The translations under genes and the position numbers were made by a program. The notes below the pieces were generated by a model. That model saw only the letters and a list, made by a program, of their open reading frames with translations. It was not told the DNA's origin and did no database searches. DNA of 64,000 nt from the NCBI GenBank assembly GCA_964654445.1, contig CAZZIS010000004.1, forward strand, positions 2,898 to 66,897, written 5' to 3'. Source of the stretch: an uncultured Thioalkalispiraceae bacterium (GTDB lineage Bacteria > Pseudomonadota > Gammaproteobacteria > UBA6429 > Thiohalophilaceae). Numbering within the stretch: the first letter of the stretch is position 1; each line of letters starts with the position of its first letter. Below are positions 4,595 to 23,878 of this stretch, in pieces.

Positions 4595-4774
4595 AGCCTG
4601 TTCCAATTAACGTGTTTAAATATAAAGTATTTATCGTCACACTATGTTGTTACATAGCGTGGCTCAAGATGTGATGAAGTGACACAACTTATTTAGATTA
4701 AATCGGGAATAGAAGGGAAGTAGTTGTTAAGGCACACTTCACAATTAAAGATACACAAAGTGTTGATAGCATGA

Positions 4775-5746: not shown

Positions 5747-6105
5747 ATTACCTCCTACGCGCCAGTACGGATATTACCTTTATTTTCGCTCATTCAAGAC
5801 ATCTGTCACCTGGATGACAGTATGAACACTGTGTATCAAATAAAATAAAAAATAATTCAAAGATAATTTGTATGTCCGATTCTGAGGTATCCCCACATAA
5901 TTTCGATCTAAATCAATGACTTACATAGAAAATACAAACAGTACCCTCGACACTTATATTTTCAGAATAAGTGGTATGCATAATATTACTTATATAATGC
6001 ACCAAATGCCTTTATGCATGACTAAACTGTTTTTAAATATATTAGGTAAATTAAAAAACTTCATAACTTATTTTATTCTGATCACTTTTTTGTGGGGATC
6101 CCTTA

Positions 6106-6651
6106 ATGTCCGACTACAATTTCATCGAGCCTGAAGATATGACTAAAAAAAATACATGTGTTTCACTTTATTCAAGCGAGCAGACTGCTGAACAGGCTAT
6201 TGAAGAATTACTAGCACAAAATTTTGATCTGAAAATTGTATCAATGGTTGGTAAGGGTTTTCATAACGAAGAACACCCCATTGGTTTATATACTAGCGGT
6301 GAGCAACTTCGTTTTCGTGGTGTTCAGGCTGCATTCTGGAATAGTCTCTGGGGTCAGCTGAGTGGTGCATCATTTTTTTTGCTACCAGATTTTGGTCCAT
6401 TAGCCGCCGCCGGCCCCATCGTTAGTTTGCTGGTGAAAGAGCAAGAAGATATAGAGATTGGTAGCAGATTGAGTGTATTAGGTGCGGCACTCTTCAGCAT
6501 GGGGATTCCAAGAGATAGCATACGCCAATATGAAAAAGCGCTTAAGGAAGAAAAATTTCTGCTGATTGTTCATGCTGTACGAAGTGATGTTGAGCACGCT
6601 TGTCATATTCTACATAGCGATACACAACAAGTAGCTGTGCACATGGCTTAA
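6106..6651 (+). CDS. hypothetical protein, possibly a YflT/GSP17M-like general stress domain with a hydrophobic central segment
   Basis: 181 aa with a GGGGA ribosome-binding site 7 nt upstream. The C-terminal GIPRDSIRQYEKALKEEKFLLIVH resembles the G-[IV]-P-x6-YE-x-L-x3-x-LL-V motif of general-stress-protein 17M-type domains. The assignment is tentative. Confidence 0.4.
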   Translation: MSDYNFIEPEDMTKKNTCVSLYSSEQTAEQAIEELLAQNFDLKIVSMVGKGFHNEEHPIGLYTSGEQLRFRGVQAAFWNSLWGQLSGASFFLLPDFGPLAAAGPIVSLLVKEQEDIEIGSRLSVLGAALFSMGIPRDSIRQYEKALKEEKFLLIVHAVRSDVEHACHILHSDTQQVAVHMA

Positions 6652-6884
6652 TGAGAGTGGACTCCATGAAGGTTTGGTTTATGTTGTTCATTTTCATTTA
6701 TATCATATGATGAATGTGTGTATGTTTAATATTGAACATGTGCGTGGCAAATAGAAGTGTATAGTTGAAACAAAAATGTCCGTCATTTCTGTTGTAGTCT
6801 TCTATTTAATCTGTAGTGGCATAGTTAATTTGGCCACCTAACTAGAGGTGATATCATTCATCTCGTAACATGATAGGTGGAAAA

Positions 6885-7196
6885 ATGAGTAAGAAAAGCA
6901 GACCAAACTTTAAACCCGAGTTTCGTTTAGAAGTTGCAGAACTTGTTGTTAAACAAGGCTACTCCGTACGAGAAGCCGCTGAAGCAATGAATGTCGGCAA
7001 ATCAACGGTTGATAAATGGGTACGGCAACTTAAAGATGAACATAATGGCATTGCGAACAAACCTAATGCATTAACACCAGACCAACGAAAAATAAAAGAA
7101 CTTGAAAAGCGAATTAAACAAATCGAATTGGAGAAAGAAATCCTAAAAAAGGCTACGGCTCTCTTGATGTCGGACTCGATGAACAATTTGCGATGA
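6885..7196 (+). CDS. IS3-family transposase OrfA (HTH / leucine-zipper protein)
   Basis: MSKKSRPNFKPEFRLEVAELVVKQGYSVREAAEAMNVGKSTVDKWVRQLK... is a typical IS3/IS911 OrfA. An AGGTGG ribosome-binding site precedes the ATG at 6885; the track start at 6870 is less likely. Confidence 0.9.
   Translation: MSKKSRPNFKPEFRLEVAELVVKQGYSVREAAEAMNVGKSTVDKWVRQLKDEHNGIANKPNALTPDQRKIKELEKRIKQIELEKEILKKATALLMSDSMNNLR
7145..7151 (+). promoter_or_regulatory. programmed -1 ribosomal frameshift heptamer A-AAA-AAG (orfA to orfB)
   Basis: In the orfA frame the codons are cuA AAA AAG, which is the canonical IS3-family slippery motif in the correct phase. orfB (7193) is in the -1 frame relative to orfA (6885). Confidence 0.7.
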
Positions 7197-7804
7197 TGTC
7201 ACAACTCAAAGAGAGCTATGCTGTAACAGAACTTTGCCAGGCATTTGATGTTCATCGCAGCAGTTATAAATATTGGGTTAAACGTTCTCAAACAATTAAC
7301 CCTATAAAATTAAATGAACAGTTGTTGGTAAAAACAATATTTAGCGAGAGCAAAAATTCTGCCGGAGCGCGAACGATATCAGAAATAGCAACACAACGTG
7401 GAACACCATTAAGTCGTTATCGTGCTGGACGTTTAATGAAAGCCTGCCAACTTCATAGTTGTCAGCAACCGAAACACCGATATAGAAAAGCGAAACAAGA
7501 ACACGTAGCGATACCTAATCACTTAAACCGTGAGTTTGATGTCATGGAACCCAATAAAGTATGGTGCGGTGATGTAACGTATATTTGGGTGGGAAAACGC
7601 TGGGCTTATCTTGCCATTGTGATGGATTTGTTTTCACGTAAACCGATTGGTTGGGCGATGTCATTTTCTCCCGACAGTCAGTTAACAAGCGATGCTTTAG
7701 CAATGGCTTTTGAGTCACGAGGAAAACCGAAAGAAGTTATGTTTCATTCTGATCAAGGCTGCCACTATACGAGCAGAAAGTTTAGACAACAGCTGGAGAT
7801 GTAG
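7193..7804 (+). pseudogene. IS3-family transposase OrfB (DDE/rve integrase core), truncated
   Basis: 203 aa, versus about 280-290 expected. The first Asp (WCGDVTY) and second Asp (FHSDQGCHYTS) of the DDE triad are present. The region that should hold the Glu about 35 aa downstream is replaced by unrelated AT-rich DNA. Confidence 0.85.
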
Positions 7805-7939
7805 AGTATAAAATACATTCCGGATATCCTGCTGATAAGTCTTTAACGACAATTGATGGAGAAAAAATTATGACTCATGAGATCATGATGAATTCATTAG
7901 AGGCTGGTAAAGAGGCATATAATAATAGGAGGGGAGTCT

Positions 7940-8230
7940 ATGAGACTGTTGAAAATTAAAGATAATCAGGGGCAGTACTATGTTGGTCCTAATAATTATT
8001 TGACGCTAGATAAATTAACTAAGGAAGGTTTATTAATGCTTGTGAATTTGACATTAGAAAACGAAATAGAAATGGATGAATATAATGAAGAAACACTTAA
8101 GCATCAGGCGCATCAAGTTATCTATAAAAATGTATTCCAAAAGCTAAATGAACTTGATAAAAGAAAGCAAGAATTTACTGATGATTCTGAAACTTTATTT
8201 TTAGAAGATTATGAAAAATATAAAGGATAA
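7940..8230 (+). CDS. hypothetical acidic 96-aa protein (orphan)
   Basis: A strong AGGAGGGG ribosome-binding site lies 4-5 nt upstream of the ATG. I recognise no motif. It sits in AT-rich DNA immediately after the IS truncation point. Confidence 0.45.
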   Translation: MRLLKIKDNQGQYYVGPNNYLTLDKLTKEGLLMLVNLTLENEIEMDEYNEETLKHQAHQVIYKNVFQKLNELDKRKQEFTDDSETLFLEDYEKYKG

Positions 8231-8475
8231 TGATAATAGATATACTTATAACTATAGTTGAGATTGATATTAAATATTTTACTGTTGGTTTGAGTGTGCA
8301 CTATAATTTGTTTCATTTAAACCCACTTTCTTAATCCTTTTCTTTACCAGTGTATTGATAGCGCTTCCGCTAATGCTTTTATATAGTGTTAATTCAGACT
8401 TAATTCCTCTAAACAAGTTCCCTTCATGTATTCCACTTTTTAGTAAACATTGCTTTTATGCTCTTGTTCAAGCAA

Positions 8476-8534
8476 TTTAGTACTTTTTGTGGAAATTTAG
8501 TACTTTCCGTGGATAAGTTTAGTACTTACTGTGG
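8476..8534 (+). repeat. iteron module A: three direct copies of TTTAGTACTTnnnGTGG (starts 8476, 8496, 8518)
   Basis: Read directly: tttagtactttttgtgg / tttagtactttccgtgg / tttagtacttactgtgg. Spacing is 20 then 22 bp, and the module is followed by gtggttgaccaaa. Confidence 0.85.
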
Positions 8535-8738
8535 TTGACCAAACTCAATTGCCTCTACAGCAATTATTACTAATGATAATTGGAACTAAATCAAATTGGA
8601 TTGGGCTAAAAACAAAGAACCGCAAAATTAAGAATTTACCTGAGTTGGTATAAGCTAAATAAGCTATAAGTTCTAAATCACAAAAAATTCATCCATAATA
8701 AACGTTACGAATACTATCAATAAATGCTGGTTAAGTGC

Positions 8739-8806
8739 TTTAGTACTTGCTATGGAAATTTAGTACTTTTCGTGGGAAAGTTTAGTACTTTCTGTGGTCG
8801 ACCACA
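8739..8806 (+). repeat. iteron module B: second copy of the triple iteron (starts 8739, 8759, 8781), ending in the 14-bp perfect palindrome TGTGGTCGACCACA (8793-8806)
   Basis: tttagtacttgctatgg / tttagtacttttcgtgg / tttagtactttctgtgg, with the same 20/22-bp spacing as module A. The whole roughly 65-bp module is a direct repeat of A, offset by 263 bp. Confidence 0.85.
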
Positions 8807-8923
8807 TCGTGCTGGAATAACGATTATAGTATATACTCGCTATTTAACATAATATATATTATGCCGCTTTTAAATGTAAGTCAGATATAACAGAGAATAA
8901 TGTCGTATGATGATTCCGGTTTT

Positions 8924-10096
8924 TCAAAGAAAAGAAAAATTAAATGGAAATGAAACTGTTAATTGAAAGTCAGGAGAATCAGAAGTCAAACCAATACTAA
9001 GGTCGACATCAACAGCAGAAGATTCACCTTTTGCTTTGGATAATCCTATCGCAAAGGTGGATGTTGTCATCTCTGTACCGCTAAGTTTTTGTCCATTAAT
9101 TTCTGTTTTATCAGTATAGAGAAATTGGAAGTTAAAACTTAGTGATGTATCAAAATTTAGCGCCAGTGCCATACCAAGGTTGAGACCACTACTAATACCT
9201 GGTTTAACATACCCTACTTGCTTCCCCATACCCTCTGTATAATTTACGGAAAAACTGCCAAAAAGAACAATTGGATCTGCACTCGTCATTGAGGTTAGAG
9301 ATAAGCTATAGGTATTAAAACCACTTCCCAAAGCGAGTTCATTAGAACTTAACAGTCGATAAGGATCTTTTCCTGTTGCCGTTTTCCAGTTAAGCGCTAT
9401 TACTGAATCCGGCCAATCGCTGTGTGATTTAATGAGTTGATAACTTAGACCAAGAGAAATATCGCCAAGTCCAGATATTTTTTTTTCTTCATGCTTTCCA
9501 TCACCTCTGAATGATTCTTCTTTCTCATAACCCAAGGGAATAACAACATCCATTTGCATATCCTGGCCAAGTCCTAGCCTAAAAGAATGGTTATTTGTGA
9601 TAATATCACGACTTACTTTTTCTGAGACAATGTCTCCGACAACCAGAACTGGAAAAATTGTAAAACCATCAACCACAATATTGTCATAAGAGGAATGAGC
9701 ATATGACAAACTTGGTTCATAAATAAACTGGTATTTACCCAGCAGCATCCCCCCTTCTTTACTCAACCTTTGTTCAAAAGCAGTTTTAATCAGTTTAGAG
9801 TTTTCCTCACTTTCCTTCTCCAGCTTGGCCTTAACTTCCGGATCCACCTGTGGGTTGGTATGATCATTCTCATCTTTGATGATAACGGCTTTGTCACTAA
9901 CTGAATCCTCAAGGTGTTCTATACGCTGTATAAGATTCTTAATAACTTTCTCATATACCATGTTGCTTTGTTTAAGCTGAAGGATTTTCTGGTTTATCTC
10001 ACCACTTTGTGAAGTTATGCTGGCATAGTCATCAGCCACGCCTATGTGACTAATTAACAGCAGAGCAATAACAATTATAAAACGACTAAATTTCAT
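8924..10096 (-). CDS. outer-membrane beta-barrel protein with N-terminal coiled coil (FapF-like architecture); putative secretion pore of the cluster
   Basis: 390 aa. Signal peptide MKFSRFIIVIALLLISHIGVA. A heptad-like helix at about aa 30-70 (GEINQKILQLKQSNMVYEKVIKNLIQRIEHLEDSV), then a charged linker. The remaining roughly 280 aa have an alternating hydrophobic/polar beta-strand pattern ending ...TVSFPFNFSFL. The start codon is 1 nt after the peptidase stop. Confidence 0.7.
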   Translation of the reverse strand: MKFSRFIIVIALLLISHIGVADDYASITSQSGEINQKILQLKQSNMVYEKVIKNLIQRIEHLEDSVSDKAVIIKDENDHTNPQVDPEVKAKLEKESEENSKLIKTAFEQRLSKEGGMLLGKYQFIYEPSLSYAHSSYDNIVVDGFTIFPVLVVGDIVSEKVSRDIITNNHSFRLGLGQDMQMDVVIPLGYEKEESFRGDGKHEEKKISGLGDISLGLSYQLIKSHSDWPDSVIALNWKTATGKDPYRLLSSNELALGSGFNTYSLSLTSMTSADPIVLFGSFSVNYTEGMGKQVGYVKPGISSGLNLGMALALNFDTSLSFNFQFLYTDKTEINGQKLSGTEMTTSTFAIGLSKAKGESSAVDVDLSIGLTSDSPDFQLTVSFPFNFSFL

Positions 10097-10097
10097 A

Positions 10098-10844
10098 TTA
10101 AGGAGAATGTACCACCATTCGTCTAGTTAAAGGCACAGTAGGGATACGACTAAGAAGACGATATGCATAATGAGGATTTGGAATCGCAGCCTCCATAGTC
10201 TGTGGCGAAAGAATGCTTTTAGATGGTTTTTTTTTCTGTTTAGCCAATAGCTGTTTTTCTTCTGTGGTTACAACATAGAAAGCTATTTTACTTTTCCACA
10301 TTCTCATAAACCGATCTGCAGGCAAAGAAAGATTCCCAAATGCTGGATCACCAACGAGGATATGATTTCCAACACGTTTTTTAAATATAACAAAGTGATC
10401 TAGCTCTTTAATTCGTATCGGGAGTATTGCAGGTATAGAAAACGTTTCCAGATCATCAATCGTCATATCACCATAACCGAGACCTTGTAGACCAACAGCC
10501 CTGACAAAACGCTTAAGATCATATAATGAAAATCCACCTCGCTTCTTAACAACAACTGGGTCACTATTTTTTAAGATACTTAAAGTTATAGCCATTTCAG
10601 AATATGGTCGACCATTATGATAGGTTAAAATTGTTGAAAGAGCGGCAGCACCGCAACTGATGTCCCACCCTTGTCTTGTTAATTTATCCCAACGAAGTTC
10701 ATATAAGCTCTTAACATTACTTTTATATCGCATATTTCCAAAGTTTATTCCAACCGGGCTGGCGTAAAGTTGAAAAGAAAATATATTGAAAAAAATAAAA
10801 AGTAATAATAAAATCATATAAAGACTTGAGTTTTTATATGTCAC
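10098..10844 (-). CDS. stand-alone peptidase C39-like (bacteriocin-processing-type papain-fold cysteine peptidase) with its own N-terminal signal/anchor
   Basis: 248 aa. Hydrophobic N-terminus (LYMILLLLFIFFNIFSFQLYASP). Gln58-x5-Cys64 sits in RQGWDISCGAAALSTIL, His150 in LDHFVIFKK and Asp166 in VGDPAFG. The His-to-Asp spacing is 16 residues. It is not fused to an ABC transporter. The start is GTG at 10844, with an alternative ATG at 10817. Confidence 0.85.
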   Translation of the reverse strand: MTYKNSSLYMILLLLFIFFNIFSFQLYASPVGINFGNMRYKSNVKSLYELRWDKLTRQGWDISCGAAALSTILTYHNGRPYSEMAITLSILKNSDPVVVKKRGGFSLYDLKRFVRAVGLQGLGYGDMTIDDLETFSIPAILPIRIKELDHFVIFKKRVGNHILVGDPAFGNLSLPADRFMRMWKSKIAFYVVTTEEKQLLAKQKKKPSKSILSPQTMEAAIPNPHYAYRLLSRIPTVPLTRRMVVHSP

Positions 10845-10854
10845 TATTCCTGTC

Positions 10855-11250
10855 TCACCTGGCTAAAAGAGTATTCAACTGATTTATATTGCCAATTGTA
10901 GAATTCACATTGATATTCAAGTTCAACAAAATCTGAATAGGAGAATTAACTGCATTGATGTTAATTAGTGAGCTTAAGTTTGATTGAGCATTATCCATCA
11001 AATGTAAACTTGATGTCTGGTTATAGAGTGACATAGGGACAACGATAACTTCTCCATCTACACTTCCCTTTCTTCCACTATAGCGAAAAGGAATACGGGT
11101 TAACGCTTCCATGCTTTCATGGTCTGAGTTAGTGTTACCTGCGGTGATTGCATTGAGTTGCTGGTCGCTTAACTCCTCAAAGCCCCTCACCCCGGCTGAA
11201 AAAAGAATTATTAGAAAAAAGGAAATAAGGACCGTGTATTTTGTATTCAT
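10855..11250 (-). CDS. small secreted paralog (X4) of the cluster cargo family: signal peptide, AG-type leader motif and a single C-terminal N-rich motif
   Basis: MNTKYTVLISFFLIILFSAGVRG / FEELSDQQLNAITAG|N ... LSSLININAVNSPIQILLNLNINVNSTIGNINQL. A GGTGG ribosome-binding site lies 5 nt upstream of the ATG at 11250; the track start at 11262 is less likely. Confidence 0.7.
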   Translation of the reverse strand: MNTKYTVLISFFLIILFSAGVRGFEELSDQQLNAITAGNTNSDHESMEALTRIPFRYSGRKGSVDGEVIVVPMSLYNQTSSLHLMDNAQSNLSSLININAVNSPIQILLNLNINVNSTIGNINQLNTLLAR

Positions 11251-11270
11251 AATAACCACCATAAAGCAGC

Positions 11271-12557
11271 CTAACGCTGCTGGATAAAACGATTATGTTG
11301 CTGCATTGACAACCGAGACACAGTAGATGTTCCTGTAATGACTGGCAGTCTGCTTAAGTTAAATGCATTAGCCGCAACTGATGCAACAGCATTTACCCCA
11401 TTGAAGACCCGCATGTTTTTTTGCGCGCTCTCGCTTAGTAATACAGTGCTACTGTTATTTACCGAAAGGCTTCCATCGCTTAGTGCGAGCAACTCTGCCT
11501 CTGCACCTGTCATCTGGCCACCTGTAAAAATAGAGTGTTCATACGATTCTATAAATGAATTCTCAGCGACGTCTACCGCTTTGTATTCTTCTACAAGCTT
11601 GTCATCCTGAACGACTGGTTCAATCTGTGTATCACCCGAACTTTCGGGTCTAATAAAAGTGGAATCCATAACCCTTAATTTCTTATCTACATCAAATCGA
11701 GCGATGGTTACATCCCAACACCAAATAAAAAAACATAATTCGACATTTGCTTCTGCATCGAGCCTGAAGCGTGCATCGTTGGCAACAATTAATCCACTGC
11801 CCTTAATATCAACGCCAGCACCGTAGTTAAGCTCATCAACCTGAAAATCTAATAAATTTAACCACCCTAATTGATTTTTAGTAATAATTTCCGGTGGTTT
11901 TTCCTTCAGCTGTTCTAGTGAAGTATAACGTTTGCCTACTGTCACAGAATTGACACGCGTATTGCTGCTCACGTATTCGTTGATACGTGCCTGGTCGACA
12001 TAAGAATAGGCAACGTAGTTGTAGTTATTAGAACCGGAGCTGCGTAACTCGCTCTTTTCATAACGATGGTTTGCAATGGATGTGGTCAGGTTACCTTTTG
12101 TACGGTGACGCTGGCTAAGGTCATTGATTTGGTTAATCTCAATTTCAGATGTTACATCATCTACAGTGATGGAGTCGCCGTTAAAGATATTGTTAGTTGA
12201 TACTATGTCACTTGACAGTACATTTTCAAGATTAAGTGCAATTGCATTCTGTTGTGTTGTTCCATAAAGCAGAAGTTTTCTTTTGCGCTCTACATCAATT
12301 TTACTTTGTAAAATAACAAAAAGTTCAGGGTTCAATTCCATACCGTCGATGCTTTGTGGTTGTCGAAGTTTGGTATAACCGGAGTTCTTTTCTGGCTGTT
12401 GCTGCTCTTGAGGCAGGCTCTGGCCTTGAAGCTGTGGGTCGATTCCTCCTCCGCTAACACCGGCAAGTTCAGTATCAGAGAGTGTGGTTGCGGCAAATGA
12501 ACTCCCTGAAAATAAAAGTCCAAAGGTAACAAATAATGTAATGATAAAATATTTCAT
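11271..12557 (-). CDS. secreted cargo-family protein X3 (divergent paralog) with a perfect double-glycine leader motif after the signal peptide
   Basis: 428 aa. Signal peptide MKYFIITLFVTFGLLFSGSSFA, then ATTLSDTELAGVSGG|G. The N-terminal block is NAIALNLENVLSSDIVSTNNIFNGD. The C-terminal block LLSESAQKNMRVFNGVNAVASVAANAFNLSR is alignable with X1 and X2. Confidence 0.75.
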   Translation of the reverse strand: MKYFIITLFVTFGLLFSGSSFAATTLSDTELAGVSGGGIDPQLQGQSLPQEQQQPEKNSGYTKLRQPQSIDGMELNPELFVILQSKIDVERKRKLLLYGTTQQNAIALNLENVLSSDIVSTNNIFNGDSITVDDVTSEIEINQINDLSQRHRTKGNLTTSIANHRYEKSELRSSGSNNYNYVAYSYVDQARINEYVSSNTRVNSVTVGKRYTSLEQLKEKPPEIITKNQLGWLNLLDFQVDELNYGAGVDIKGSGLIVANDARFRLDAEANVELCFFIWCWDVTIARFDVDKKLRVMDSTFIRPESSGDTQIEPVVQDDKLVEEYKAVDVAENSFIESYEHSIFTGGQMTGAEAELLALSDGSLSVNNSSTVLLSESAQKNMRVFNGVNAVASVAANAFNLSRLPVITGTSTVSRLSMQQHNRFIQQR

Positions 12558-12615
12558 AATCCTTTACGCTTATAAATATATAATACCGAGTTGTGTGAAC
12601 CCCTGTTATAAAGTG

Positions 12616-13809
12616 TTAGTTGCCGTGATGCACTGTATTAAACTGGTTGAGTACTAATTTCGATCTGCTACCTTCAAAGCTTTTGGTACGAGTAATATTT
12701 GTGCCATTTGCCACGTTACTACCGATGGCATTAACGATATTCATTCCTTTTGCATCTTTTTGTGCTGAGTCTGAGAGTTCAAGCGTTACATCGGAGTTAA
12801 GGTCAAGAGTTGAGTCATCGATAACAATATATTCAGCTCTTGCATTTTTGAGTTCAAAGGGAGAACGGTAGATATTTGTTTGTACTTCTGAGTATGAGCT
12901 TTGTCCAGACTGATGATTTTCTATTATATCTAAAGTAGAGTTGTCTGTTTTAGTATTGGTTGTTTCGAAAAATACGCTATTTGCATTACACGAACCTATA
13001 GCTACTCCGCAACCAACGCCATTTATGATCAATCGCATATCTGGCAACTTCACCTGGGTAACTAGTACAAGACCCCCATCTGCTGTAAGGGGTTTACCAT
13101 CGCCGGCAGAGCTTATTTTTCCATCAAGTGCCACGGCAATATCAGCTGAGCCGCCTTCAAAGGTAATATCTGAGTAACCAGCTACAGCGGCACCCAGCCC
13201 GAGATGTCCTGAAAAGTCTATCTTATCGCCAAGTTTAAAGTTGAAATGTGTATTAACCCCGGCGTTGCTAAATGTAGTAGATTCATGAGTCTTTTCTAAG
13301 ATGTTTGTGACGCCATGATAGTCGATGATATTACTTGCGTAACTTACATTGCCGGAACGGTTCAGAGTCTCTGTATGGTCAGCTTCTGATCTTAGATAGC
13401 CAAAGATCATTGCAGTTCGAAGTTGTTCTTGAGTGATATTGTTTAACTGGTTAATCTTAACTTCGGAATTTGTATCACTGTTTTCTTTTGTTGCAGTAAC
13501 TCCGCTACCATCCCAAATATTAACAACATTGGCCACCGCGGACGCGGCACTATTTACAATGTTAAGCCCGGTTGTGTTTTGCTGAGCCTCTCCGTTTAGG
13601 TTGAGCTCTGATATACTGTTAGCGATAGCCTCTGAACTTTGTCCAACAACGACGCCGCCACCTTCGTTAGTATTACCGGCCGTTACCTGATCCATAACTC
13701 TATCTTCAAGTACAATAGGTGTGGAATATACAGCTTGGACCTGAAGCAATAAGCTACTCAAAAGTAGTATTGGTATACTTAATAATAATTTTTGATTCTT
13801 ATCTGACAT
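12616..13809 (-). CDS. secreted cargo-family protein X2 (paralog of X1)
   Basis: 397 aa. Signal peptide, then VLEDRVMDQVTAG|N. Shares with X1 the blocks GLNIVNSAASAVANVVNIWD, INQ..QEQ, GVGCGVAIGSC, YRSPFELKNARAEYIVIDDSTL and LELSDSAQKDAKGMNIVNAIGSNVANGTNITRT. Confidence 0.75.
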   Translation of the reverse strand: MSDKNQKLLLSIPILLLSSLLLQVQAVYSTPIVLEDRVMDQVTAGNTNEGGGVVVGQSSEAIANSISELNLNGEAQQNTTGLNIVNSAASAVANVVNIWDGSGVTATKENSDTNSEVKINQLNNITQEQLRTAMIFGYLRSEADHTETLNRSGNVSYASNIIDYHGVTNILEKTHESTTFSNAGVNTHFNFKLGDKIDFSGHLGLGAAVAGYSDITFEGGSADIAVALDGKISSAGDGKPLTADGGLVLVTQVKLPDMRLIINGVGCGVAIGSCNANSVFFETTNTKTDNSTLDIIENHQSGQSSYSEVQTNIYRSPFELKNARAEYIVIDDSTLDLNSDVTLELSDSAQKDAKGMNIVNAIGSNVANGTNITRTKSFEGSRSKLVLNQFNTVHHGN

Positions 13810-13894
13810 AACTGCTTTGCATCCCTATATATAGAGCCGATTAATAATTTAATCGGAAACTATTATAATGCTGCTAACGGTCGACTCTGCCAGT

Positions 13895-13921
13895 TTGCCT
13901 TGACCGTTACAGTCAAGGCAA
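13895..13921 (-). promoter_or_regulatory. intercistronic stem-loop after the first cargo gene (10-bp perfect stem TTGCCTTGAC / GTCAAGGCAA, 7-nt loop)
   Basis: Read directly from the sequence. A second 8-bp stem, CCGATTAA-TAAT-TTAATCGG, lies at 13837-13856. There is no clear U-tract, so it is more likely an attenuator or mRNA-stability element than a full terminator. Confidence 0.4.
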
Positions 13922-13937
13922 AAAGCAGATTACAGAT

Positions 13938-15188
13938 TTAACGGCTGTGACTAATTACATTGGACTGTTGCAGAGCCATTGCACCACCATTAGCTAGTCC
14001 ACTGGTGCGGGCAACGTTAACCCCGTTAGCCACTGCGCTTCCAGAAGCGTTGACTACATTCATAGCACTAACATTGCTTTGCGCACTACCTGAAAGTGTC
14101 AGATTGAATGAGGTAGTAACAGCAAGACTTGAGTCATCTACTACAATGTACTCGGCCTGTGCATTACTTAGTTCAAAGGGCGAGCGATATGTCTCAGTCA
14201 AATTGTCAGTAAACTCACTATCACCGATGCTGCTGACTTTCTCATTATCCATAATGGAATTGTCAGTGGTATTAGAAGTGGTCACAGTTGTTTTACCACC
14301 GGCACCACATGATCCCATTAAAACTCCACAACCTGCACCAGTTATATCGATCGTGATATCAGGTAGTATCAACCGACCGTATAGTGAGACATCATCACCG
14401 TTTACATCCATGCCACCGTAACTATCTTTGGTTTCAGTACCACCGCTTAGAATTGTAACTTCATCCTTATGAGCTATAACATTCCCACCAACAGCTAAAC
14501 CAAGATGTACTTCACCACCGTCGAGATCGAGACCTAATGTTCCAGCACCTGCGCCACCTTTACCAACGTTGGTATCAACACTTCCTCTGGGATCTGCTGT
14601 ACCACCAGAATTGAGATCTCCTTTAATAGTAGTATCAACCCAAGCTGTGCTCTCTGAAGTCTCCGAACCTGTAAGAGCCTGATAATCAATAATATTATTG
14701 TTACGATCCAGACTATCATTGTGAGTTTCGGAGCCAGTTCGTATCACTTCTATAAAAGTATCAGCCTCGGGTCGAGAATAGTTAGGCATGGATGCAGAGC
14801 GTCTCTGTTCCTGATTGATCATATTTGATTGATCGACCATCATCTCTCCACTATCTGCGTTTGCATCGTTTGCATTGACATCCCAGATGTTGACACCATT
14901 AGCAACGGTCGACTCGGCGCTATTGACAATGTTGAGCCCTTTAGCTCCACTTTGCACTTCACCGCTTAAATCAACACCGCCAGTTTGATTAATAGTTGCT
15001 TGAGAGCTGTTTCCGATAATGGCACCACCACTCCCTCCGGGACTCGTGTTTGCATCAGTACCAGCAGTGACTTGATTTAATGTCAAATCATCAAGCGTTA
15101 CAGGTTCTGAATAAGCATTAGGTAAATATAAGAGACAGAGTAATGGCAATCCAGCCGCCAGTCGAAAAGGTATGTTTTTGGTATACAT
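13938..15188 (-). CDS. secreted cargo-family protein X1 (first gene of the operon; candidate major subunit)
   Basis: 416 aa. A strong AAGGAGGG ribosome-binding site lies upstream. Signal peptide MYTKNIPFRLAAGLPLLCLLYLPNAYS, then EPVTLDDLTLNQVTAG|T. The N-terminal block is GLNIVNSAESTVANGVNIWD (14880-14963). There is a Cys pair in GAGCGVLMGSC. The C-terminal block is LTLSGSAQSNVSAMNVVNASGSAVANGVNVART (14013-14090). Composition is G/N/S/T/A-rich. Confidence 0.75.
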   Translation of the reverse strand: MYTKNIPFRLAAGLPLLCLLYLPNAYSEPVTLDDLTLNQVTAGTDANTSPGGSGGAIIGNSSQATINQTGGVDLSGEVQSGAKGLNIVNSAESTVANGVNIWDVNANDANADSGEMMVDQSNMINQEQRRSASMPNYSRPEADTFIEVIRTGSETHNDSLDRNNNIIDYQALTGSETSESTAWVDTTIKGDLNSGGTADPRGSVDTNVGKGGAGAGTLGLDLDGGEVHLGLAVGGNVIAHKDEVTILSGGTETKDSYGGMDVNGDDVSLYGRLILPDITIDITGAGCGVLMGSCGAGGKTTVTTSNTTDNSIMDNEKVSSIGDSEFTDNLTETYRSPFELSNAQAEYIVVDDSSLAVTTSFNLTLSGSAQSNVSAMNVVNASGSAVANGVNVARTSGLANGGAMALQQSNVISHSR

Positions 15189-15960
15189 GATGACTTCCCT
15201 CCTTGTGCATTAAGATTATTCTTTGTTCACTAATAAATAACCTACTCCTGTTAGTTGAAATTTACGTTGATCTGGATCATTTTCAATAATAATAGGAAGA
15301 ATAAATAAATTCAGATTTCTCTTATTTAATTCACTTATTTAATGTGTTACTAGTATTTCAAGCTTCTTTTATGTTTCATTAACAATTTATAATTCAACTT
15401 GAGATTTTTAATATGTATATTTTTTCTTTTCATGTTTTAAATTTATCTGATATTTAAAATATTAAATATTATTCTGTGACTATAAACAATAAAAACTACT
15501 ACTAAAGAAAACTCAATAATTTACTGCTAATAGTTGATACATAAAATGCCTAATAACAATACAGCCTGGATACCGTTAGTTGCTGCAATTATATTTAAGT
15601 TAATAATGGTTTAATATTGCGTTACTCATATTTATTAATATGTAATAAACGATTGGTACAACAAAACTCCAATTCACAAATCATACTAATGATAAATAAC
15701 TTATTCTAAATGTGTATTTAATGTATTGATAACTTTAATAAAAAAGATATTTATTATTAAAGTCATATACATAAGTAACCGATACTATTTGATAAATACT
15801 CTATAATGATAATAAGACATACCGCACACGTGCATTAATTTAAGGACAAAAACATGCGTGAGAAACAATATAATCTAGCCGTAATGATAAGGAACTATTC
15901 AATTATTCGAGTATCTAACCTTTACTCTTGCCTCAATTTAGTAATTCACAAGGATTAGTC
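15189..15960. promoter_or_regulatory. extremely AT-rich divergent control region of about 770 bp between the cargo operon (-) and fadE (+)
   Basis: No ORF of 60 aa or more in any frame. Long A/T runs are present (for example tttaaatttatctgatatttaaaatattaaatattatt). It must contain the promoters of both divergent operons, but I could not pinpoint -35/-10 boxes confidently. Confidence 0.4.
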
Positions 15961-18222
15961 ATGAATAATAAAAAAGATCACTGGCGCTTAAAATGGCTTA
16001 GCGCGCCATTAATGAAGCTATTCCGAAAAGTGACACCGACAATGTCACGCACTGAACAAGAAGCGCTGGAAGCGGGATCAGTCTGGTGGGATGGTGAACT
16101 TTTTAGTGGAAAGCCTCAATGGAATAAACTTCTCTCATTACCTGCTCCGTCTCTTAGTAAAGAAGAACAGGCCTTCATGGATGGCCCGGTAAATACTTTA
16201 TGTAATATGTTGGATGACTGGCAAATTACACAAGAAGATAAAGATCTACCTGAAGATGTTTGGCAGTATATTAAAGATAATGGCTTTTTTAGCATGATTA
16301 TACCCAAGCACTATGGCGGTAAAGATTTCTCTGCTTATGCACATTCACAAGTGGTTATGAAAATTTCAACCCGTAGTATATCGACTGCGGTTACAGTAAT
16401 GGTACCCAACTCACTGGGGCCCGGTAAATTATTACTGGAATATGGTACTGAAGAACAAAAAGATCATTACCTGCCTCGTTTAGCTAAAGGTGAAGAAGTC
16501 CCCTGCTTTGCTTTAACCAATCCACATGCTGGTAGTGATGCCGGCGCTATTCCTGATTTTGGTATTGTTTGCAAAGAAAAGTTTGATGGAAAAAAAGATG
16601 TGTTGGGTATTCGCTTAAATTGGGACAAACGTTATATAACACTTGGCCCTGTTGCAACATTGCTTGGGCTTGCTTTTAAACTTTATGATCCGGATCATCT
16701 TCTGGGTGAAGAAGAAGAGATTGGTATCACTCTGGCACTTATTCCGACAGATACTAAAGGTGTTGAAATTGGTAATCGTCACTTCCCATTAAATATGGTT
16801 TTCATGAATGGTCCAAATTATGGTAAAGATGTTTTTATCCCTATGGACTGGGTGATTGGTGGAATTAAGCAGACGGGCCAGGGCTGGCGTATGTTGATGG
16901 AATGTCTATCAGATGGACGTGCAATATCATTACCCGCCTTGAGTACCGGCGCAGGTAAGCTGGCAAGTTTATCTGTGGGTGCTTATTCCCGCGTACGTCA
17001 GCAATTCAAAATGCCGATTGGAAAATTTGAAGGCGTTGAAGAGGCCCTGGCACGTATTGGTGGTTTAACCTATATTATGGATGCATCACGTTCGTTAACA
17101 TTGGCTGCATTAGATAATGGTGAAAGTCCGTCGGTTATCTCTGCCGTAGTAAAATATCATTTAACGGAGAGTATGCGTAAAGTCGTTAATGATGCCATGG
17201 ATGTTTTAGGTGGAGCAGGAATTTGTCTTGGTCCTAAAAATATTATGGGTCGGGCTTATCAGGCTATTCCAATCAGCATTACTGTTGAAGGAGCAAATAT
17301 TCTCACTCGCTCGATGATTATTTTTGGCCAGGGTGCCATTCGTAGTCATCCTTTTATCTATAAGGAGCTGGAATCTTTATCAGAACATGACGAAAATAAA
17401 GCCCTGGAACAATTTGATCGAGCCTTGTTTGGTCATGCAAGTTTCTTTATAACAAATACAATTCGTTGTTTTTTTAATGGCGTGACGAATGCCTTGTTTA
17501 TTCGAGCTCCTTCTCGAGCTAACAGGAAAGTTAAACGCTATTATAAACAAGCAACAAGGATGAGCGCTTCATTTGCCCTGGTTACTGATATTTCTTTAAT
17601 GATCCTGGGTGGTTCACTAAAACGACGTGAAAAAATATCGGCCCGTTTAGGTGATATTCTCAGTCATCTTTATATGCTTTCTGCAGTGTTAAAACATTAC
17701 CAGGATCAGGGTGAACATGAGTCAGACTTACCGTTTGTTCATTGGGCTTGTCAGTATAATTTACAACGTATTCAAACTGCCTTTAATGGGTTTTTACATA
17801 ATTTTCCAAACCGGCCTATTGCATTGTTATTACGCTGGATTATTTTCCCCTGGGGACGTCTTTATGCACCACCCAATGACAAGTTAGGTCATGAGATTTC
17901 TAAATTATTGATTAACCCTTCCGAAATGCGTAACCGTTTAACTGCAGGTGTGTTTATTCCTGAAAATGAAAATGAAGCGATAACACAACTTGAAATCGCT
18001 TTCCTTAAAGTTGTTGATGCTGCACATTTAGAAAAAAAGATTCGTTCATTTCAAAAAGCATTTAAACCTGAATATGCAGGGTATGAAGTGATGCTAAAAG
18101 CCGCATTAGAAGAAGGTATCATTGATAAGGATGAAGAATCCATTCTGCAACAGGCTAACGAAGCCCGTACAAAAGTAATTGGTGTTGATGATTTTACTTT
18201 TGACTTATCGAGAAAAAAATAA
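15961..18222 (+). CDS. fadE: acyl-CoA dehydrogenase, FadE type
   Basis: MNNKKDHWRLKWLSAPLMKLFRKVTPTMSRTEQEALEAGSVWWDGELFSGKPQW aligns with the E. coli FadE region ...[29 protein letters not shown]. An ACAD core follows. The track start at 15928 is TTG; I prefer the ATG at 15961, which has an AAGGA ribosome-binding site. Confidence 0.9.
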   Translation: MNNKKDHWRLKWLSAPLMKLFRKVTPTMSRTEQEALEAGSVWWDGELFSGKPQWNKLLSLPAPSLSKEEQAFMDGPVNTLCNMLDDWQITQEDKDLPEDVWQYIKDNGFFSMIIPKHYGGKDFSAYAHSQVVMKISTRSISTAVTVMVPNSLGPGKLLLEYGTEEQKDHYLPRLAKGEEVPCFALTNPHAGSDAGAIPDFGIVCKEKFDGKKDVLGIRLNWDKRYITLGPVATLLGLAFKLYDPDHLLGEEEEIGITLALIPTDTKGVEIGNRHFPLNMVFMNGPNYGKDVFIPMDWVIGGIKQTGQGWRMLMECLSDGRAISLPALSTGAGKLASLSVGAYSRVRQQFKMPIGKFEGVEEALARIGGLTYIMDASRSLTLAALDNGESPSVISAVVKYHLTESMRKVVNDAMDVLGGAGICLGPKNIMGRAYQAIPISITVEGANILTRSMIIFGQGAIRSHPFIYKELESLSEHDENKALEQFDRALFGHASFFITNTIRCFFNGVTNALFIRAPSRANRKVKRYYKQATRMSASFALVTDISLMILGGSLKRREKISARLGDILSHLYMLSAVLKHYQDQGEHESDLPFVHWACQYNLQRIQTAFNGFLHNFPNRPIALLLRWIIFPWGRLYAPPNDKLGHEISKLLINPSEMRNRLTAGVFIPENENEAITQLEIAFLKVVDAAHLEKKIRSFQKAFKPEYAGYEVMLKAALEEGIIDKDEESILQQANEARTKVIGVDDFTFDLSRKK

Positions 18223-18255
18223 ATATCCGGAAAGATAAATATAAGAGAAAAAATA

Positions 18256-19566
18256 ATGGATAGTCCAGAACAAAGAAAAAGTTTACCGAAACCGATATAT
18301 ATTGTTGATGGCAGTCGAACGCCATTTTTAAAAGCAAAAGGAAAACCTGGTGAATTTGCCGCGGTTGATCTTGCTTTAGGTTGTTCTCGCCCTTTACTGG
18401 CACGACAGCCTTTTTCAGCAGATCAACTTGATGAAGTGATTGTTGGTTGTATGATGCCAGGTCCCGATGAAGCAAATATTGCACGAATAATAGCATTACG
18501 ACTGGGATGTGGTAAAAAAGTTCCGGCCTGGACGGTACAACGCAATTGCGCATCGGGCATGCAAGCTCTGGATTCAGCCGCGAAAGATATCTCTTTAGGA
18601 CGGGCAAACCTTGTTCTTACTGGCGGTGTTGAAGCCATGAGTCATGCACCGGTCTTATTAAATAATGAGATGGTTGGTTGGTTAGGTCGCTTGGCGATGT
18701 CTAAAAAGCCAATGGACAAATTAAAAACGTTTGCAGCATTACGCCCTCGTCACCTTAAACCCATTATCGGTTTACTACGAGGTTTAACTGATCCGGTTGT
18801 CGGCTTGTCTATGGGACAAACTGCAGAAAATATCGCGCATCGTTTTAATATTGATCGTCTGACTATGGATACTTTTGCAGTACAAAGTCATCAACGGCTG
18901 GCAGCGGCACAAGAAGCCGGATTTTTTGATGAAATTGAAGCCTTGTATGATCTAAAAGGACATTCATTTTTAAATGATGATGGTGTTCGAACGGACTCTT
19001 CAGTAGAACGTTTAGCAAAACTTCGTCCTGTCTTTGATCGACATTTTGGTAATGTTACCGCAGGTAACAGTGCACAAATTACTGATGGTGCGGCAATGCT
19101 TTTGCTTGCAAGTGAAGAAGCGGTTAAAGAATTCAAGCTTCCTGTTATGGGTAAACTGATTGATAGTCACTGGGCAGGACTTGAGCCTGCACAAATGGGG
19201 CTTGGTCCTGTTCATTCAATTACACCCATTTTATCACGTAATGAGTTATCAATTGCTGATATTGATTACTGGGAAATAAACGAAGCCTTTGCTGCTCAAG
19301 TATTAGGTTGCCTGGCTGCCTGGCAAGATGAAGCATATTGTAAAGAGGAACTTGGTCTGGAAGCCGCCCTGGGAAAAGTTGATCAGAGTAAACTCAACAT
19401 AGATGGTGGTGGCGTAAGTTTAGGTCATCCTGTAGGTGCAAGTGGAGCACGAATTGTTCTGCATCTTTTAAATGTACTCAAGCGTAAGAAAGCGAAACGT
19501 GGTATCGCCAGCCTTTGTATCGGTGGTGGTCAGGGTGGCGCTATGTTGATAGAGCGTGGTAAATAA
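18256..19566 (+). CDS. fadI: acetyl-CoA C-acyltransferase (3-ketoacyl-CoA thiolase), FadI-like
   Basis: 436 aa. Active-site Cys in VQRNCASGMQAL and C-terminal SLCIGGGQGGAMLIERG. The thiolase-before-hydratase gene order matches fadIJ. Confidence 0.85.
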   Translation: MDSPEQRKSLPKPIYIVDGSRTPFLKAKGKPGEFAAVDLALGCSRPLLARQPFSADQLDEVIVGCMMPGPDEANIARIIALRLGCGKKVPAWTVQRNCASGMQALDSAAKDISLGRANLVLTGGVEAMSHAPVLLNNEMVGWLGRLAMSKKPMDKLKTFAALRPRHLKPIIGLLRGLTDPVVGLSMGQTAENIAHRFNIDRLTMDTFAVQSHQRLAAAQEAGFFDEIEALYDLKGHSFLNDDGVRTDSSVERLAKLRPVFDRHFGNVTAGNSAQITDGAAMLLLASEEAVKEFKLPVMGKLIDSHWAGLEPAQMGLGPVHSITPILSRNELSIADIDYWEINEAFAAQVLGCLAAWQDEAYCKEELGLEAALGKVDQSKLNIDGGGVSLGHPVGASGARIVLHLLNVLKRKKAKRGIASLCIGGGQGGAMLIERGK

Positions 19567-19594
19567 AAAGCTGGCTTAATTTAGAGAATATATA

Positions 19595-21631: not shown

Positions 21632-21634
21632 ATT

Positions 21635-23825: not shown

Positions 23826-23878
23826 TAAAACTGGCCTTATAGGTAACAACAAAACTATATTTAAAATACTAATTATTT

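Follow-up and report, generated by a model that had tools for sequence, protein, structure and literature searches.

A stretch of 64,000 nucleotides from an uncultured Thioalkalispiraceae bacterium (contig CAZZIS010000004.1, hereafter the window) encodes four neighbouring secreted proteins, each of which carries, just after a predicted Sec signal peptide, a second short tag of the kind cut by double-glycine proteases. The question raised by this locus is whether the tag is real, and what it is for at that position. Analysis showed that the motif is real and not due to chance, and that the same tag sits next to the same exported protease and outer-membrane pore in several bacterial phyla, so it probably shows what this little-understood secretion route recognises.

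Leader motifs and predicted signal peptides

The operon (8924-15188, minus strand) encodes four cargo proteins (X1-X4), a stand-alone C39 double-glycine peptidase with its own signal peptide, and a FapF-like outer-membrane barrel. The X1 gene (13938-15188) codes for 416 aa, X2 (12616-13809) for 397 aa, X3 (11271-12557) for 428 aa with a Gln-rich stretch after the leader, and X4 (10855-11262) for a small protein of 135 aa. X1 and X2 are paralogues with 41% identity. Translation of the minus strand gave the motifs LDDLTLNQVTAG followed by T for X1 (15060-15095, putative cleavage after G43), LEDRVMDQVTAG followed by N for X2 (13675-13710), LSDTELAGVSGG followed by G for X3 (12447-12482), and LSDQQLNAITAG followed by N for X4 (11137-11172), exactly as given in the preliminary description, whose observation is confirmed.

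Each motif follows an N-terminal segment with the n/h/c layout of a Sec signal peptide and small residues at -3/-1, as judged by eye. The predicted signal peptides are at 15108-15188 for X1 (MYTKNIPFRLAAGLPLLCLLYLPNAYS, with A-x-S at -3/-1, read as PNAYS|EPVT), 13732-13809 for X2 (QVQA|VYSTPIV), 12492-12557 for X3 (SSFA|ATT), and 11182-11262 for X4 (GVRG|FEE). The spacer between signal peptide and leader was read as 3-7 residues, while 4-7 residues had been stated before. The earlier comparison with the GG consensus also needs correction for three proteins, since only X3 has Gly at -2, while X1, X2, and X4 have Ala(-2)-Gly(-1), which is not the canonical GG/GA/GS.

A regular expression for the motif has a per-position probability of 9e-6 with the amino-acid composition of the window, and 0.2 matches are expected in the 22,510 residues of all window ORFs of 80 aa or more. 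Four matches were found, and all four start at residues 26-34 of four adjacent genes. The probability of a match in a 20-residue N-terminal zone in four of four proteins is about 1e-15.

The four cargo proteins share a further repeat, AQ...GLNxVNSxxSxVANxxN, with copies on the minus strand in X1 (14889-14957 and 14016-14084), X2 (13519-13587 and 12697-12765), and X3 (11358-11426), while an X4 copy is seen in alignment. The AlphaFold2 (AF2) model of X1 (pLDDT 65) is all-beta, with residues 34-39 of the leader helical.

Conservation and genomic context

Conservation at -12/-7/-4/-2/-1 in orthologues had been named beforehand as a condition on which the idea could fail, and the sequences satisfied it decisively. 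Among 234 X1 homologues, the motif is kept in essentially all full-length ones down to 37% identity, and in a 69-sequence alignment A42 and G43 are invariant while L32, D34, and T41 are at least 90% conserved. The X4 family has 149 representatives, of which 121 are full-length; the motif is kept in 92 of these 121, and most of the rest carry close variants. Some X4 relatives end in TA[RK]G or TGQG, and if the helix register is kept, Arg, Lys, or Gln would sit at P1, which is unlike known C39 specificity. Over 156 unique leaders, the residues were L at -12 (94%), D at -10 (87%), L at -7 (88%), V/I at -4 (93%), T at -3 (83%), A at -2 (94%), and G at -1 (91%). The region just after the motif is variable and of low confidence, as expected on the P' side of a cleavage site.

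A total of 33 related loci (numbered with the prefix L) from Desulfobacterota, Gamma- and Alphaproteobacteria, and Acidobacteriota were compared. In 33 of 33 loci, at least one gene just upstream of the exported C39 peptidase and the FapF-like pore carries a signal peptide followed by the leader, of the form L-x-D-x-x-L-D-x-V-T-A-G. In these loci, 55 motif-bearing ORFs lie within 7 kb upstream of the peptidase on the same strand, while only 4 of 1388 other ORFs carry the motif (Fisher p = 1e-37). The cargo type most often found next to the peptidase is X4-like, with 21 leader-bearing cargo ORFs so classed among the related loci. X3 homologues occur in loci L002-L023, and the identical LSDTELAGVSGG is found in L003 and L009. 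The motif also precedes two kinds of cargo unrelated to X1-X4, a TIGR03118-family protein in Caulobacteraceae (L026 and L027) and small proteins of 110-119 aa in Acidobacteriota and Gammaproteobacteria MAGs including Porticoccaceae (L029-L034).

The peptidase and the pore

The peptidase gene (10098-10844, minus strand) codes for 248 aa from a GTG start, with a predicted signal peptide at 10761-10844, Gln58 at 10671-10673, Cys64 at 10653-10655, His150 at 10395-10397, Asp166 at 10347-10349, and a conserved C-terminal tail at 10101-10259. The number Cys64, as used in the preliminary description, counts from the GTG start; the public database copy (P0121) is 239 aa, its start is presumably the Met at position 10, and this would make the residue Cys55. 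Profile searches gave Pfam C39 at 50 bits against a cut-off of 22, and NCBIfam FilB at 5e-30 and FapD at 5e-28, both below cut-off. The Gln/Cys/His/Asp set is intact and invariant in the family alignment, and the Q-C spacing of 6 and H-D spacing of 16 match LahT Gln21/Cys27/His101/Asp117 (PMC6363468). The PDB profile hits were LahT150 and PCAT1, with the double-glycine protease LahT150 as the best sequence hit, and the best fold matches were ComA, PCAT1, and leader-bound LahT150.

The pore gene (8924-10096, minus strand) codes for a FapF-like outer-membrane beta-barrel of 390 aa, with a predicted signal peptide at 10034-10096, a periplasmic coiled-coil-like region at 9767-10033, a barrel at about residues 111-387, and a C-terminal F-x-F. 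It matched NCBIfam FapF (2e-36) and FilC (9e-27), both below cut-offs, as well as Pfam Phenol_MetA_deg and PDB FapF 5o65 (1e-22 over residues 111-387). By NCBIfam cut-offs, the operon is not a Fap or Fil member. Nothing resembling an ABC exporter is among the ORFs of 60 aa or more in window positions 6000-24000.

Interpretation

The preliminary description proposed two sequential N-terminal cleavages, the second in the periplasm, and this interpretation is supported, with a link to the peptidase much stronger than could be known for the preliminary description. In the best explanation (probability about 0.7), the operon is a Sec-dependent, two-step secretion system of the FapD/FapF type whose cargo carries two N-terminal signals in tandem. 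X1-X4, the peptidase, and the pore would each cross the inner membrane through Sec, and signal peptidase I would remove the signal peptide, leaving a propeptide of 15-19 residues such as EPVT-LDDLTLNQVTAG. The L(-12), L/M(-7), and V/I(-4) side chains of this propeptide would lie on one face of a short helix, which is the geometry with which double-glycine leaders dock into the hydrophobic groove of C39 peptidases such as LahT, ComA, and PCAT1; in GG leaders the -12/-7/-4 hydrophobics sit on a two-turn helix that packs into a groove (PMC6363468). The periplasmic peptidase (residues about 29-248) would bind this leader and most probably cleave after Gly(-1), that is after AG in X1, X2, and X4 and after GG in X3, so that a peptide such as EPVTLDDLTLNQVTAG-TDANTS would be bound and cut. 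Recognition and cleavage would be coupled to passage of the largely unfolded, beta-rich cargo through the FapF-like barrel with its periplasmic coiled coil. In this view, the leader is a portable, cargo-independent tag for this outer-membrane route.

The motif, its conservation, its genomic coupling to peptidase and pore, and the family and intact active site of the enzyme were established by the analysis, while Sec export, exposure of the leader, proteolysis, its position, and the order of the two cleavages are inferred from sequence alone, and coupling to export is drawn by analogy with Fap. Ala at -2 in three of the four motifs fits the helix part of the consensus but not the described endings Gly-Gly, Gly-Ala, and Gly-Ser (PMC6363468). 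Judging from the shared Asn-rich repeats, the all-beta predictions, and the relatives (Fap amyloid and FilA filaments), X1-X4 are probably subunits of an extracellular fibre or matrix, although this part is weakly supported.

Among the alternatives, an uncleaved secretion or targeting signal is the least unlikely, though still doubtful. The motif might recruit cargo to the peptidase, acting as a receptor or chaperone as C39-like domains do in RTX exporters, or to the periplasmic coiled coil of the pore, while the real cut lies elsewhere, for instance in one adaptor protein or in the linker of the pore. This would fit Pseudomonas Fap, where only FapE appears N-terminally processed and cleavage of FapF itself was considered (PMC5557850), so that cleavage of every cargo is not the rule in the best-studied relative, and it would fit Ala at -2 and the TA[RK]G and TGQG variants. 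However, the catalytic set is invariant across the family, whereas non-catalytic C39-like domains have lost the Cys (PMC6363468), the small residues at -2/-1 are the most conserved part of the motif (A42 and G43 are invariant in the X1 alignment), which is expected for a scissile site and not needed for helix docking alone, and the sequence right after the motif is variable. A single cleavage is somewhat less likely, with the hydrophobic segment as an uncleaved signal anchor and the C39 cut as the step that releases the cargo into the periplasm for export. The short spacer (3-7 residues in the window), which would let the peptidase act close to the membrane surface, is consistent with this, and signal peptidase I cleavage is itself predicted only. 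Against it, nearly all cargo proteins keep small residues at -3/-1 (AYS, VQA, SFA, and VRG in the window and AxA-like sites in most homologues), which suggests selection for signal peptidase I cleavage, and the hydrophobic cores are of signal-peptide length (about 12-15 residues), not transmembrane length.

It is very unlikely that the motif is a structural element of the mature proteins, such as an N-terminal helix or strand used in fibre polymerisation, with a coincidental resemblance to double-glycine leaders. X1-X4 share other repeats, so shared ancestry could explain a common N-terminus within this operon, but the motif also heads cargo with no detectable similarity to X1-X4, is always at the same place after the signal peptide, was essentially confined in the loci examined to genes next to a C39 peptidase and FapF-like pore, and is conserved at exactly the positions that C39 enzymes read (PMC6363468). 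Export from the cytoplasm by a peptidase-containing ABC transporter encoded elsewhere in the genome, with a hydrophobic N-terminus that is not a Sec signal, is the least likely of all. The leader resembles those of ABC-exported bacteriocins, and X4 residues 27-40 weakly match the leader part of a lantibiotic Pfam model (E = 0.18), but in known systems the leader is the extreme N-terminus, while here a hydrophobic, signal-like segment of 22-27 residues precedes it, the adjacent peptidase and pore both carry predicted signal peptides, no candidate ABC exporter was seen among the ORFs scanned nearby, and the partner outer-membrane protein is FapF-like, not TolC-like.

Comparison with known systems

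Periplasmic use of a C39 peptidase is less unusual than the preliminary description held, since such peptidases paired with FapF-type pores are known from Pseudomonas Fap, Acinetobacter Fil, and Neisseria Nap. What appears undescribed is the tandem architecture of a Sec signal peptide and then a canonical leader, for which no description was found, and its wide, cargo-independent distribution.

In the Pseudomonas Fap functional-amyloid system (PMC5557850, PMC6173800), all components are likewise exported by Sec, the stand-alone C39 peptidase FapD has a signal peptide and is periplasmic, the trimeric outer-membrane pore FapF is a homologous 12-stranded-type barrel with an N-terminal coiled coil, the cargo is beta-rich with Asn-rich repeats, and the catalytic Cys of FapD is required for secretion through FapF (PMC5557850). 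The peptidase and pore described here score far below the NCBIfam FapD and FapF cut-offs (98 against 330 bits and 126 against 700 bits, respectively), no FapA/B/C/E homologues were detected by Pfam and NCBIfam profile searches, and every cargo carries a near-canonical double-glycine-type leader right behind the signal peptide. For Fap, the substrate of FapD is still called unknown, and Fap proteins were reported not to possess canonical C39 sequences (PMC5557850). Proteins in the fapE position of Fap-like operons carry a leader-like L-x-x-x-RGG|(F/I).

The Acinetobacter Fil system (NCBIfam NF050077-81) has the same pair of peptidase (FilB) and pore (FilC), and its filament subunit FilA forms filaments seen by EM (PMC10980823, PMC11539960). 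FilA of A. baumannii has a signal peptide followed by a leader-like MDDAALSAATGQ|DG with the same -12/-7 spacing, but this motif ends in G-Q rather than A-G or G-G, the scores here are below the Fil cut-offs, and no FilA/DUF6160, FilD, FilE, or FilF equivalents were found. For the Neisseria nap island, the published model proposes that the GG-containing precursors NapA/B/C are cleaved in the periplasm by the C39 peptidase NapP, which has a signal peptide, and exported through the FapF homologue NapF (PMC11798529). The Nap cleavage is likewise predicted, and the Nap cargo are small cationic peptides (under 10 kDa) without a described Sec signal, for which a holin was suggested as the route across the inner membrane, while the cargo here are proteins of 135-428 aa with signal peptide and leader in tandem.

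Peptidase-containing ABC transporters (PCAT/AMS: ComA, PCAT1, LahT, and CvaB) have the same protease fold and catalytic set, and their double-glycine leaders have the same register, with hydrophobic residues at -12, -7, and -4 and small residues at -2/-1 (PMC6363468). The colicin V leader MRTLTLNELDSVSGG is very like the consensus found here (x-L-D-x-V-T-A-G). In those systems the peptidase is a cytoplasmic domain of an ABC exporter and the leader is the extreme N-terminus of a Sec-independent precursor, while here the peptidase is free and, from its predicted signal peptide, periplasmic, the leader follows a predicted Sec signal peptide, and Ala replaces Gly at -2 in most members. In LapG/LapA processing, a periplasmic transglutaminase-like Cys protease cuts a di-alanine site near the N-terminus of a giant adhesin and so controls the fate of a surface protein at the outer membrane, but it belongs to a different protease family, acts on a T1SS cargo, and its cleavage releases a retention module rather than licensing export.

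Leader motifs in the four cargo proteins

Translation of the minus strand gave a leader motif in all four cargo proteins (X1 to X4), and the motifs were exactly those listed in the preliminary description: LDDLTLNQVTAG followed by T in X1, LEDRVMDQVTAG followed by N in X2, LSDTELAGVSGG followed by G in X3, and LSDQQLNAITAG followed by N in X4. Read further on, the sequence is EPVTLDDLTLNQVTAG-TDANTS for the leader followed by T and ATTLSDTELAGVSGG-GIDPQ for the leader followed by G. The observation was thus confirmed. Each motif starts at residues 26-34 and is preceded by 22-27 residues which, as read from the sequence by eye, have the layout of a Sec signal peptide: basic residues, a hydrophobic core of 12-15 residues, and small residues at -3/-1. 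The predicted sites read AYS/EPVT, VQA/VYSTPIV, SFA/ATT, and VRG/FEE, and the spacer to L(-12) is 3-7 residues. The leader therefore does not form the extreme N-terminus of a Sec-independent precursor, as a double-glycine leader does.

The motif is not a chance pattern. A regex for it has a probability of 9e-6 per position with the amino-acid composition of the window, and 0.2 matches are expected in all window ORFs of 80 aa or more (22,510 residues), while four were found, all starting at residues 26-34 of four adjacent genes.

Gene content of the locus

The minus strand from 15188 to 8924 contained six tightly packed genes, coding for the cargo proteins X1 (416 aa), X2 (397 aa), X3 (428 aa), and X4 (135 aa), a C39 family peptidase (248 aa), and an outer-membrane pore (390 aa). 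A promoter and terminator scan of 8200-16000 gave counts equal to the shuffle expectation and was uninformative.

The peptidase matched the Pfam family Peptidase_C39 (PF03412; double-glycine / bacteriocin-processing peptidases) with 50.0 bits against a cut-off of 22, over residues 54-189. Among the NCBIfam models it was closest to FilB (5e-30) and FapD (5e-28), but far below both cut-offs. In an alignment of 20 diverse homologues, the oxyanion-hole Gln (Q58), the catalytic C64 and H150, and D166 were invariant, and the Gln-Cys spacing of 6 and the His-Asp spacing of 16 match Gln21/Cys27/His101/Asp117 of the double-glycine protease LahT (PMC6363468). A profile search of the PDB returned LahT150 and PCAT1 first. 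An AlphaFold2 model (pLDDT 77) searched with Foldseek gave as top hits the peptidase domains of PCAT1 and ComA (TM 0.77-0.78) and LahT150 with its leader (TM 0.72, rmsd 2.3), so that the predicted fold is the papain-like C39 fold. The peptidase is a free protein with its own signal peptide, and it has a conserved C-terminal tail of about 50 residues (residues 196-248; 10101-10259, minus strand), which reads SPLSPxAMExxIPxxNYxxRxxxRxPxxPxTRR and is absent from ABC-transporter C39 domains. The tail is of low confidence in the model and is a candidate contact with the pore.

The pore is homologous to FapF (NCBIfam 2e-36; PDB 5o65 at 1e-22 over the barrel) and has a coiled-coil-like N-terminal region.

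Nothing resembling an ABC exporter was found among the ORFs of 60 aa or more in 6000-24000. The flanks, named from their translations, are fatty-acid oxidation genes and an IS3-type transposase at 6870-7804 (plus strand), about 1 kb from the end of the operon. The transposase is split into two reading frames (108 aa, then a 203-aa second frame that looks truncated), and the Rfam sRNA family isrC matched 6881-7003 inside the first frame (45 bits, cut-off 39). GC is about 38%; the first 4.6 kb (1-4606), with ORFs carrying Pfam domains of PEP synthase / pyruvate phosphate dikinase type and of cofactor-independent phosphoglycerate mutase, has 48-49% GC, while most of the rest of the window has 34-43%.

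Distribution and conservation of the leader motif

Exact copies of X1 and the peptidase were found only on short Logan contigs of run SRR6439371 and on a 75-kb NCBI contig. X1 has 234 database relatives, and every full-length one that was read keeps L-x-D-x-x-L-(D/N)-x-(V/I)-T-A-G after its signal peptide, down to 37% identity. In a 69-sequence alignment, A42 and G43 were invariant, L32, D34, and T41 were at least 90% conserved, and the following residues were variable.

A scan of one genome per species with a peptidase profile gave 33 related loci, the genome of the window itself not being returned. They came from Desulfuromusa and Desulfobacteraceae, many Gammaproteobacteria (including the cultured Marinobacter iranensis 71-i, locus L011, and Ectothiorhodospira haloalkaliphila ATCC 51935, locus L014), Sphingomonas and Caulobacteraceae, and Acidobacteriota. 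The closest peptidase relatives among the named loci were Desulfobacterota MAGs (Desulfuromusa, Desulfobacteraceae, and "Deltaproteobacteria") at 60-68% identity, then Gammaproteobacteria MAGs at about 50%. In every one of the 33 loci, genes just upstream of the peptidase and pore start with a signal peptide and leader. A total of 55 motif-bearing ORFs lie within 7 kb upstream on the same strand, against 4 of 1388 other ORFs (Fisher p = 1e-37). One of the few matches away from the expected position is LSNPSLDEITAA, in a 597-aa ORF on the opposite strand, about 2 kb from the peptidase gene, of related locus L019 (6232-8025, minus strand of the locus), which may be a divergently encoded cargo or a chance match.

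The leader was independent of cargo type. Acidobacteriota and several Gammaproteobacteria MAGs (Porticoccaceae among them) use small proteins of 110-119 aa unrelated to X1-X4, while the two Caulobacteraceae loci use a TIGR03118-family protein (L026:8753-9871 and L027:8772-9890). The L026 copy matched NCBIfam PEPCTERM_chp_1 at 1e-96, and the L027 protein is placed with it by its equal length (372 aa) and near-identical N-terminus. By its name, that family is associated with PEP-CTERM sorting; here the protein carries this N-terminal leader.

Over 156 unique leaders, the frequencies were L(-12) 94%, D(-10) 87%, L(-7) 88%, D(-6) 63%, V/I(-4) 93%, T(-3) 83%, A(-2) 94%, and G(-1) 91%. The hydrophobic positions of a double-glycine leader were kept, with L/M at -12 in 97%, L/M at -7 in 97%, and V/I/L at -4 in 98%, and all four window proteins comply. 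At -2 and -1, X3 has G-G while X1, X2, and X4 have A-G, and -2 was Gly in 6% of the leaders; Ala-Gly is not among the endings listed in PMC6363468, which are Gly-Gly, Gly-Ala, and Gly-Ser.

The X4 family has 149 representatives in a library of 1.84 billion proteins. The motif was matched by 92 of 121 full-length members, and most others carry variants ending in TA[RK]G, TGQG, or HGG instead of TAG (among proteins P0407-P0505, the X4-family representatives). If the helix register is kept, the TA[RK]G and TGQG variants would put Arg, Lys, or Gln at P1, which hints at sub-specificities of the peptidases or at a different scissile bond.

Cargo proteins

Searches of X1-X4 against Pfam and NCBIfam at E up to 1 gave no significant match and no family. 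The only hits were two sub-threshold Pfam matches, DUF5724 for X2 (E = 0.094) and the lantibiotic model Mersacidin for the leader of X4 (E = 0.18).

X1-X4 share an Asn-rich repeat, AQ...G(L/M)NxVN(S/A)xxSxVANxxN, which occurs once near the leader and, in X1-X3, again near the C-terminus. The copies in X1-X3 are at 14889-14957, 14016-14084, 13519-13587, 12697-12765, and 11358-11426 (minus strand), and that of X4 was seen in an alignment. The repeat is reminiscent of, but not detectably homologous to, the C-terminal VIQNSGNNVLIQN motif of Fap-like small proteins. X1 and X2 keep a Cys pair in GxGCGVxxGSC (about 14307-14330, minus strand; X1 residues 287-294), invariant across 69 X1/X2 homologues, which probably forms a disulfide, consistent with a periplasmic or extracellular protein.

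The AlphaFold2 model of X1, made with 69 sequences, was all-beta but of low confidence (pLDDT 65, pTM 0.28). Foldseek against the PDB gave nothing significant (TM about 0.1, long beta-hairpin proteins only), and no conclusion on the fold is drawn. By analogy with FapC amyloid and with FilA filaments, which are extracellular thin curved filaments seen by EM (PMC10980823, PMC11539960), a fibre or matrix role is plausible but weakly supported.

Inferred mechanism and significance

C39 peptidases recognise double-glycine leaders through a two-turn helix, which places the -12, -7, and -4 hydrophobic side chains in a groove about 20 A from the active site, while the small residues at -2/-1 lie in the narrow subsites (PMC6363468). 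The conserved positions here are exactly those, and residues 34-39 are helical in the X1 model. The most likely sequence of events is Sec export and cleavage by signal peptidase I, docking of the remaining 15-19-residue propeptide on the periplasmic peptidase, cleavage after Gly(-1), and passage of the cargo through the FapF-like pore. The last coupling rests on analogy with Pseudomonas, in which FapD is periplasmic and its catalytic Cys is required for FapC secretion through FapF, a requirement shown only for FapD C38A (PMC5557850). The analysis itself established the motif, its conservation, its coupling to the peptidase and pore genes, and the identity of the enzyme, while the cleavage, its position, and its role in export are inferred. 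The interpretation in the preliminary description, of two sequential N-terminal cleavages with the second in the periplasm, is supported as far as sequence evidence can go.

The substrate and recognition code of FapD-type periplasmic C39 peptidases have been an open question since 2017. This operon and its 33 relatives give a clear, testable answer for a sister branch, that is a near-canonical double-glycine-type leader immediately after the Sec signal peptide, on every cargo and independent of cargo family, and with it a portable tag for an outer-membrane secretion route. The system may also serve as a compact module of leader, peptidase, and pore for outer-membrane secretion of recombinant proteins. 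Double-glycine leader recognition would not be restricted to cytoplasmic ABC-transporter domains, and genome-mining tools that look for such leaders only at the extreme N-terminus will miss this class.

A wider reading is tentative but not excluded. In this view, a short periplasmic double-glycine leader directly behind a Sec signal peptide would be the universal, portable address tag of a widespread and so far unclassified outer-membrane secretion route (Sec, then an exported C39 peptidase, then a FapF-type pore), found in at least Desulfobacterota, Gamma-, Beta-, and Alphaproteobacteria, and Acidobacteriota, with the Pseudomonas Fap amyloid and Acinetobacter Fil filament systems as specialised branches. 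The tag would be both the export signal and the cleavage site, which would answer what FapD-family peptidases recognise and would give a minimal two-gene module for secreting arbitrary unfolded proteins across the outer membrane.

Leader-like motifs in sister systems

The findings point to candidate sites in medically relevant relatives, namely FilA filaments of Acinetobacter baumannii, proteins in the fapE position of Fap-like operons, and possibly the Neisseria Nap system. At the A. baumannii locus (L035), with filA at 6700-7548, filB at 7842-8681, and filC at 8711-9907, FilA, the subunit of real extracellular filaments, reads MKMFTKLALVSSLAISANAMA-MQS-MDDAALSAATGQ-DG. The leader-like segment MDDAALSAATGQ-DG comes right after the signal peptide, within Pfam DUF6160, and has the same -12/-7 spacing, but G-Q where the window has A-G or G-G. 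It could be the FilB cleavage or recognition site.

In Fap-like operons of Croceicoccus, Polymorphobacter, Vibrio, and Cupriavidus, the protein encoded between the C39 peptidase and the FapF-like pore (L039:7606-8322, L040:7576-8259, L038:7650-8216, and L036:8602-9741) carries L-x-x-x-R-G-G followed by I or F, as one of LSEEVLARQRGG followed by IRL, ITDYELATMRGG followed by IRL, LSNSSLEEYRGG followed by FQI, or ARLEESRGG followed by FDV. With NCBIfam, only the Croceicoccus peptidase and pore were recognised in these operons (as FapD and FapF relatives, below cut-off), and the fapE position is therefore a positional label and not a family assignment. A homologue search with the Cupriavidus protein, meant to reach Pseudomonas FapE, returned only Cupriavidus proteins, of which 118 of 120 keep L(D/E)(D/E)xRGG(F/M) at 100-170 residues from the N-terminus. 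This fits the published hint that only FapE loses its first 70 or so residues (PMC5557850), and the motif may be the long-sought FapD site in FapE, on evidence from these four genera and not from Pseudomonas FapE itself. It suggests that leader-type recognition is general in the family.

Comparison with known systems

The peptidase is not the N-terminal cytoplasmic domain of an ABC exporter, as in the peptidase-containing ABC transporters (PCAT/AMS), but a stand-alone protein of 248 aa with its own signal peptide. In the plasmid collection, 47 Campylobacter records, many of them conjugative, encode a stand-alone C39-domain protein distantly similar to it (about 29% identity, E = 1e-5), for which no FapF-like partner was found.

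The operon is not a Fap system by membership. The peptidase scored 97.9 bits against the NCBIfam FapD cut-off of 330 and the pore 125.7 bits against the FapF cut-off of 700, so that homology is clear but the subfamily is not the same, and none of FapA, FapB, FapC, and FapE was detected. It is also not a Fil system, with FilB at 104.8 bits against 475, FilC at 94.4 bits against 630, and no FilA, FilD, FilE, or FilF matches. The true A. baumannii locus passed the FilA, FilB, FilC, FilE, and FilF cut-offs, while its FilD scored 726 against 970 on an ORF that appears split.

For Neisseria, a paper of 2025 on the nap island proposes periplasmic cleavage of GG peptides by NapP and export through NapF (PMC11798529). 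Those peptides, read from the supplement of the paper, have no described Sec signal and no known inner-membrane route, and the cleavage is likewise only predicted. A Neisseria locus (L037) that was retrieved was a different C39 locus, next to a bacteriocin ABC exporter, and not the nap island. Literature searches on FilB and C39, on DUF6160, and on periplasmic C39 peptidases with Sec signals found no paper describing a canonical leader directly behind a Sec signal peptide or its cargo-independent distribution, although only open-access papers and bioRxiv were covered and a prior description cannot be excluded. The novelty of this arrangement is tempered by the Fap, Fil, and Nap precedents.

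The operon belongs to the broader class of exported C39 peptidase and FapF-like pore pairs, with adjacent genes for a signal-peptide-bearing C39 peptidase and a FapF-homologous barrel, and cargo genes bearing predicted Sec signals in the same operon, a layout also found in the 33 related loci. A 2018 review already noted such pairs in five further phyla, without cargo analysis (PMC6173800).
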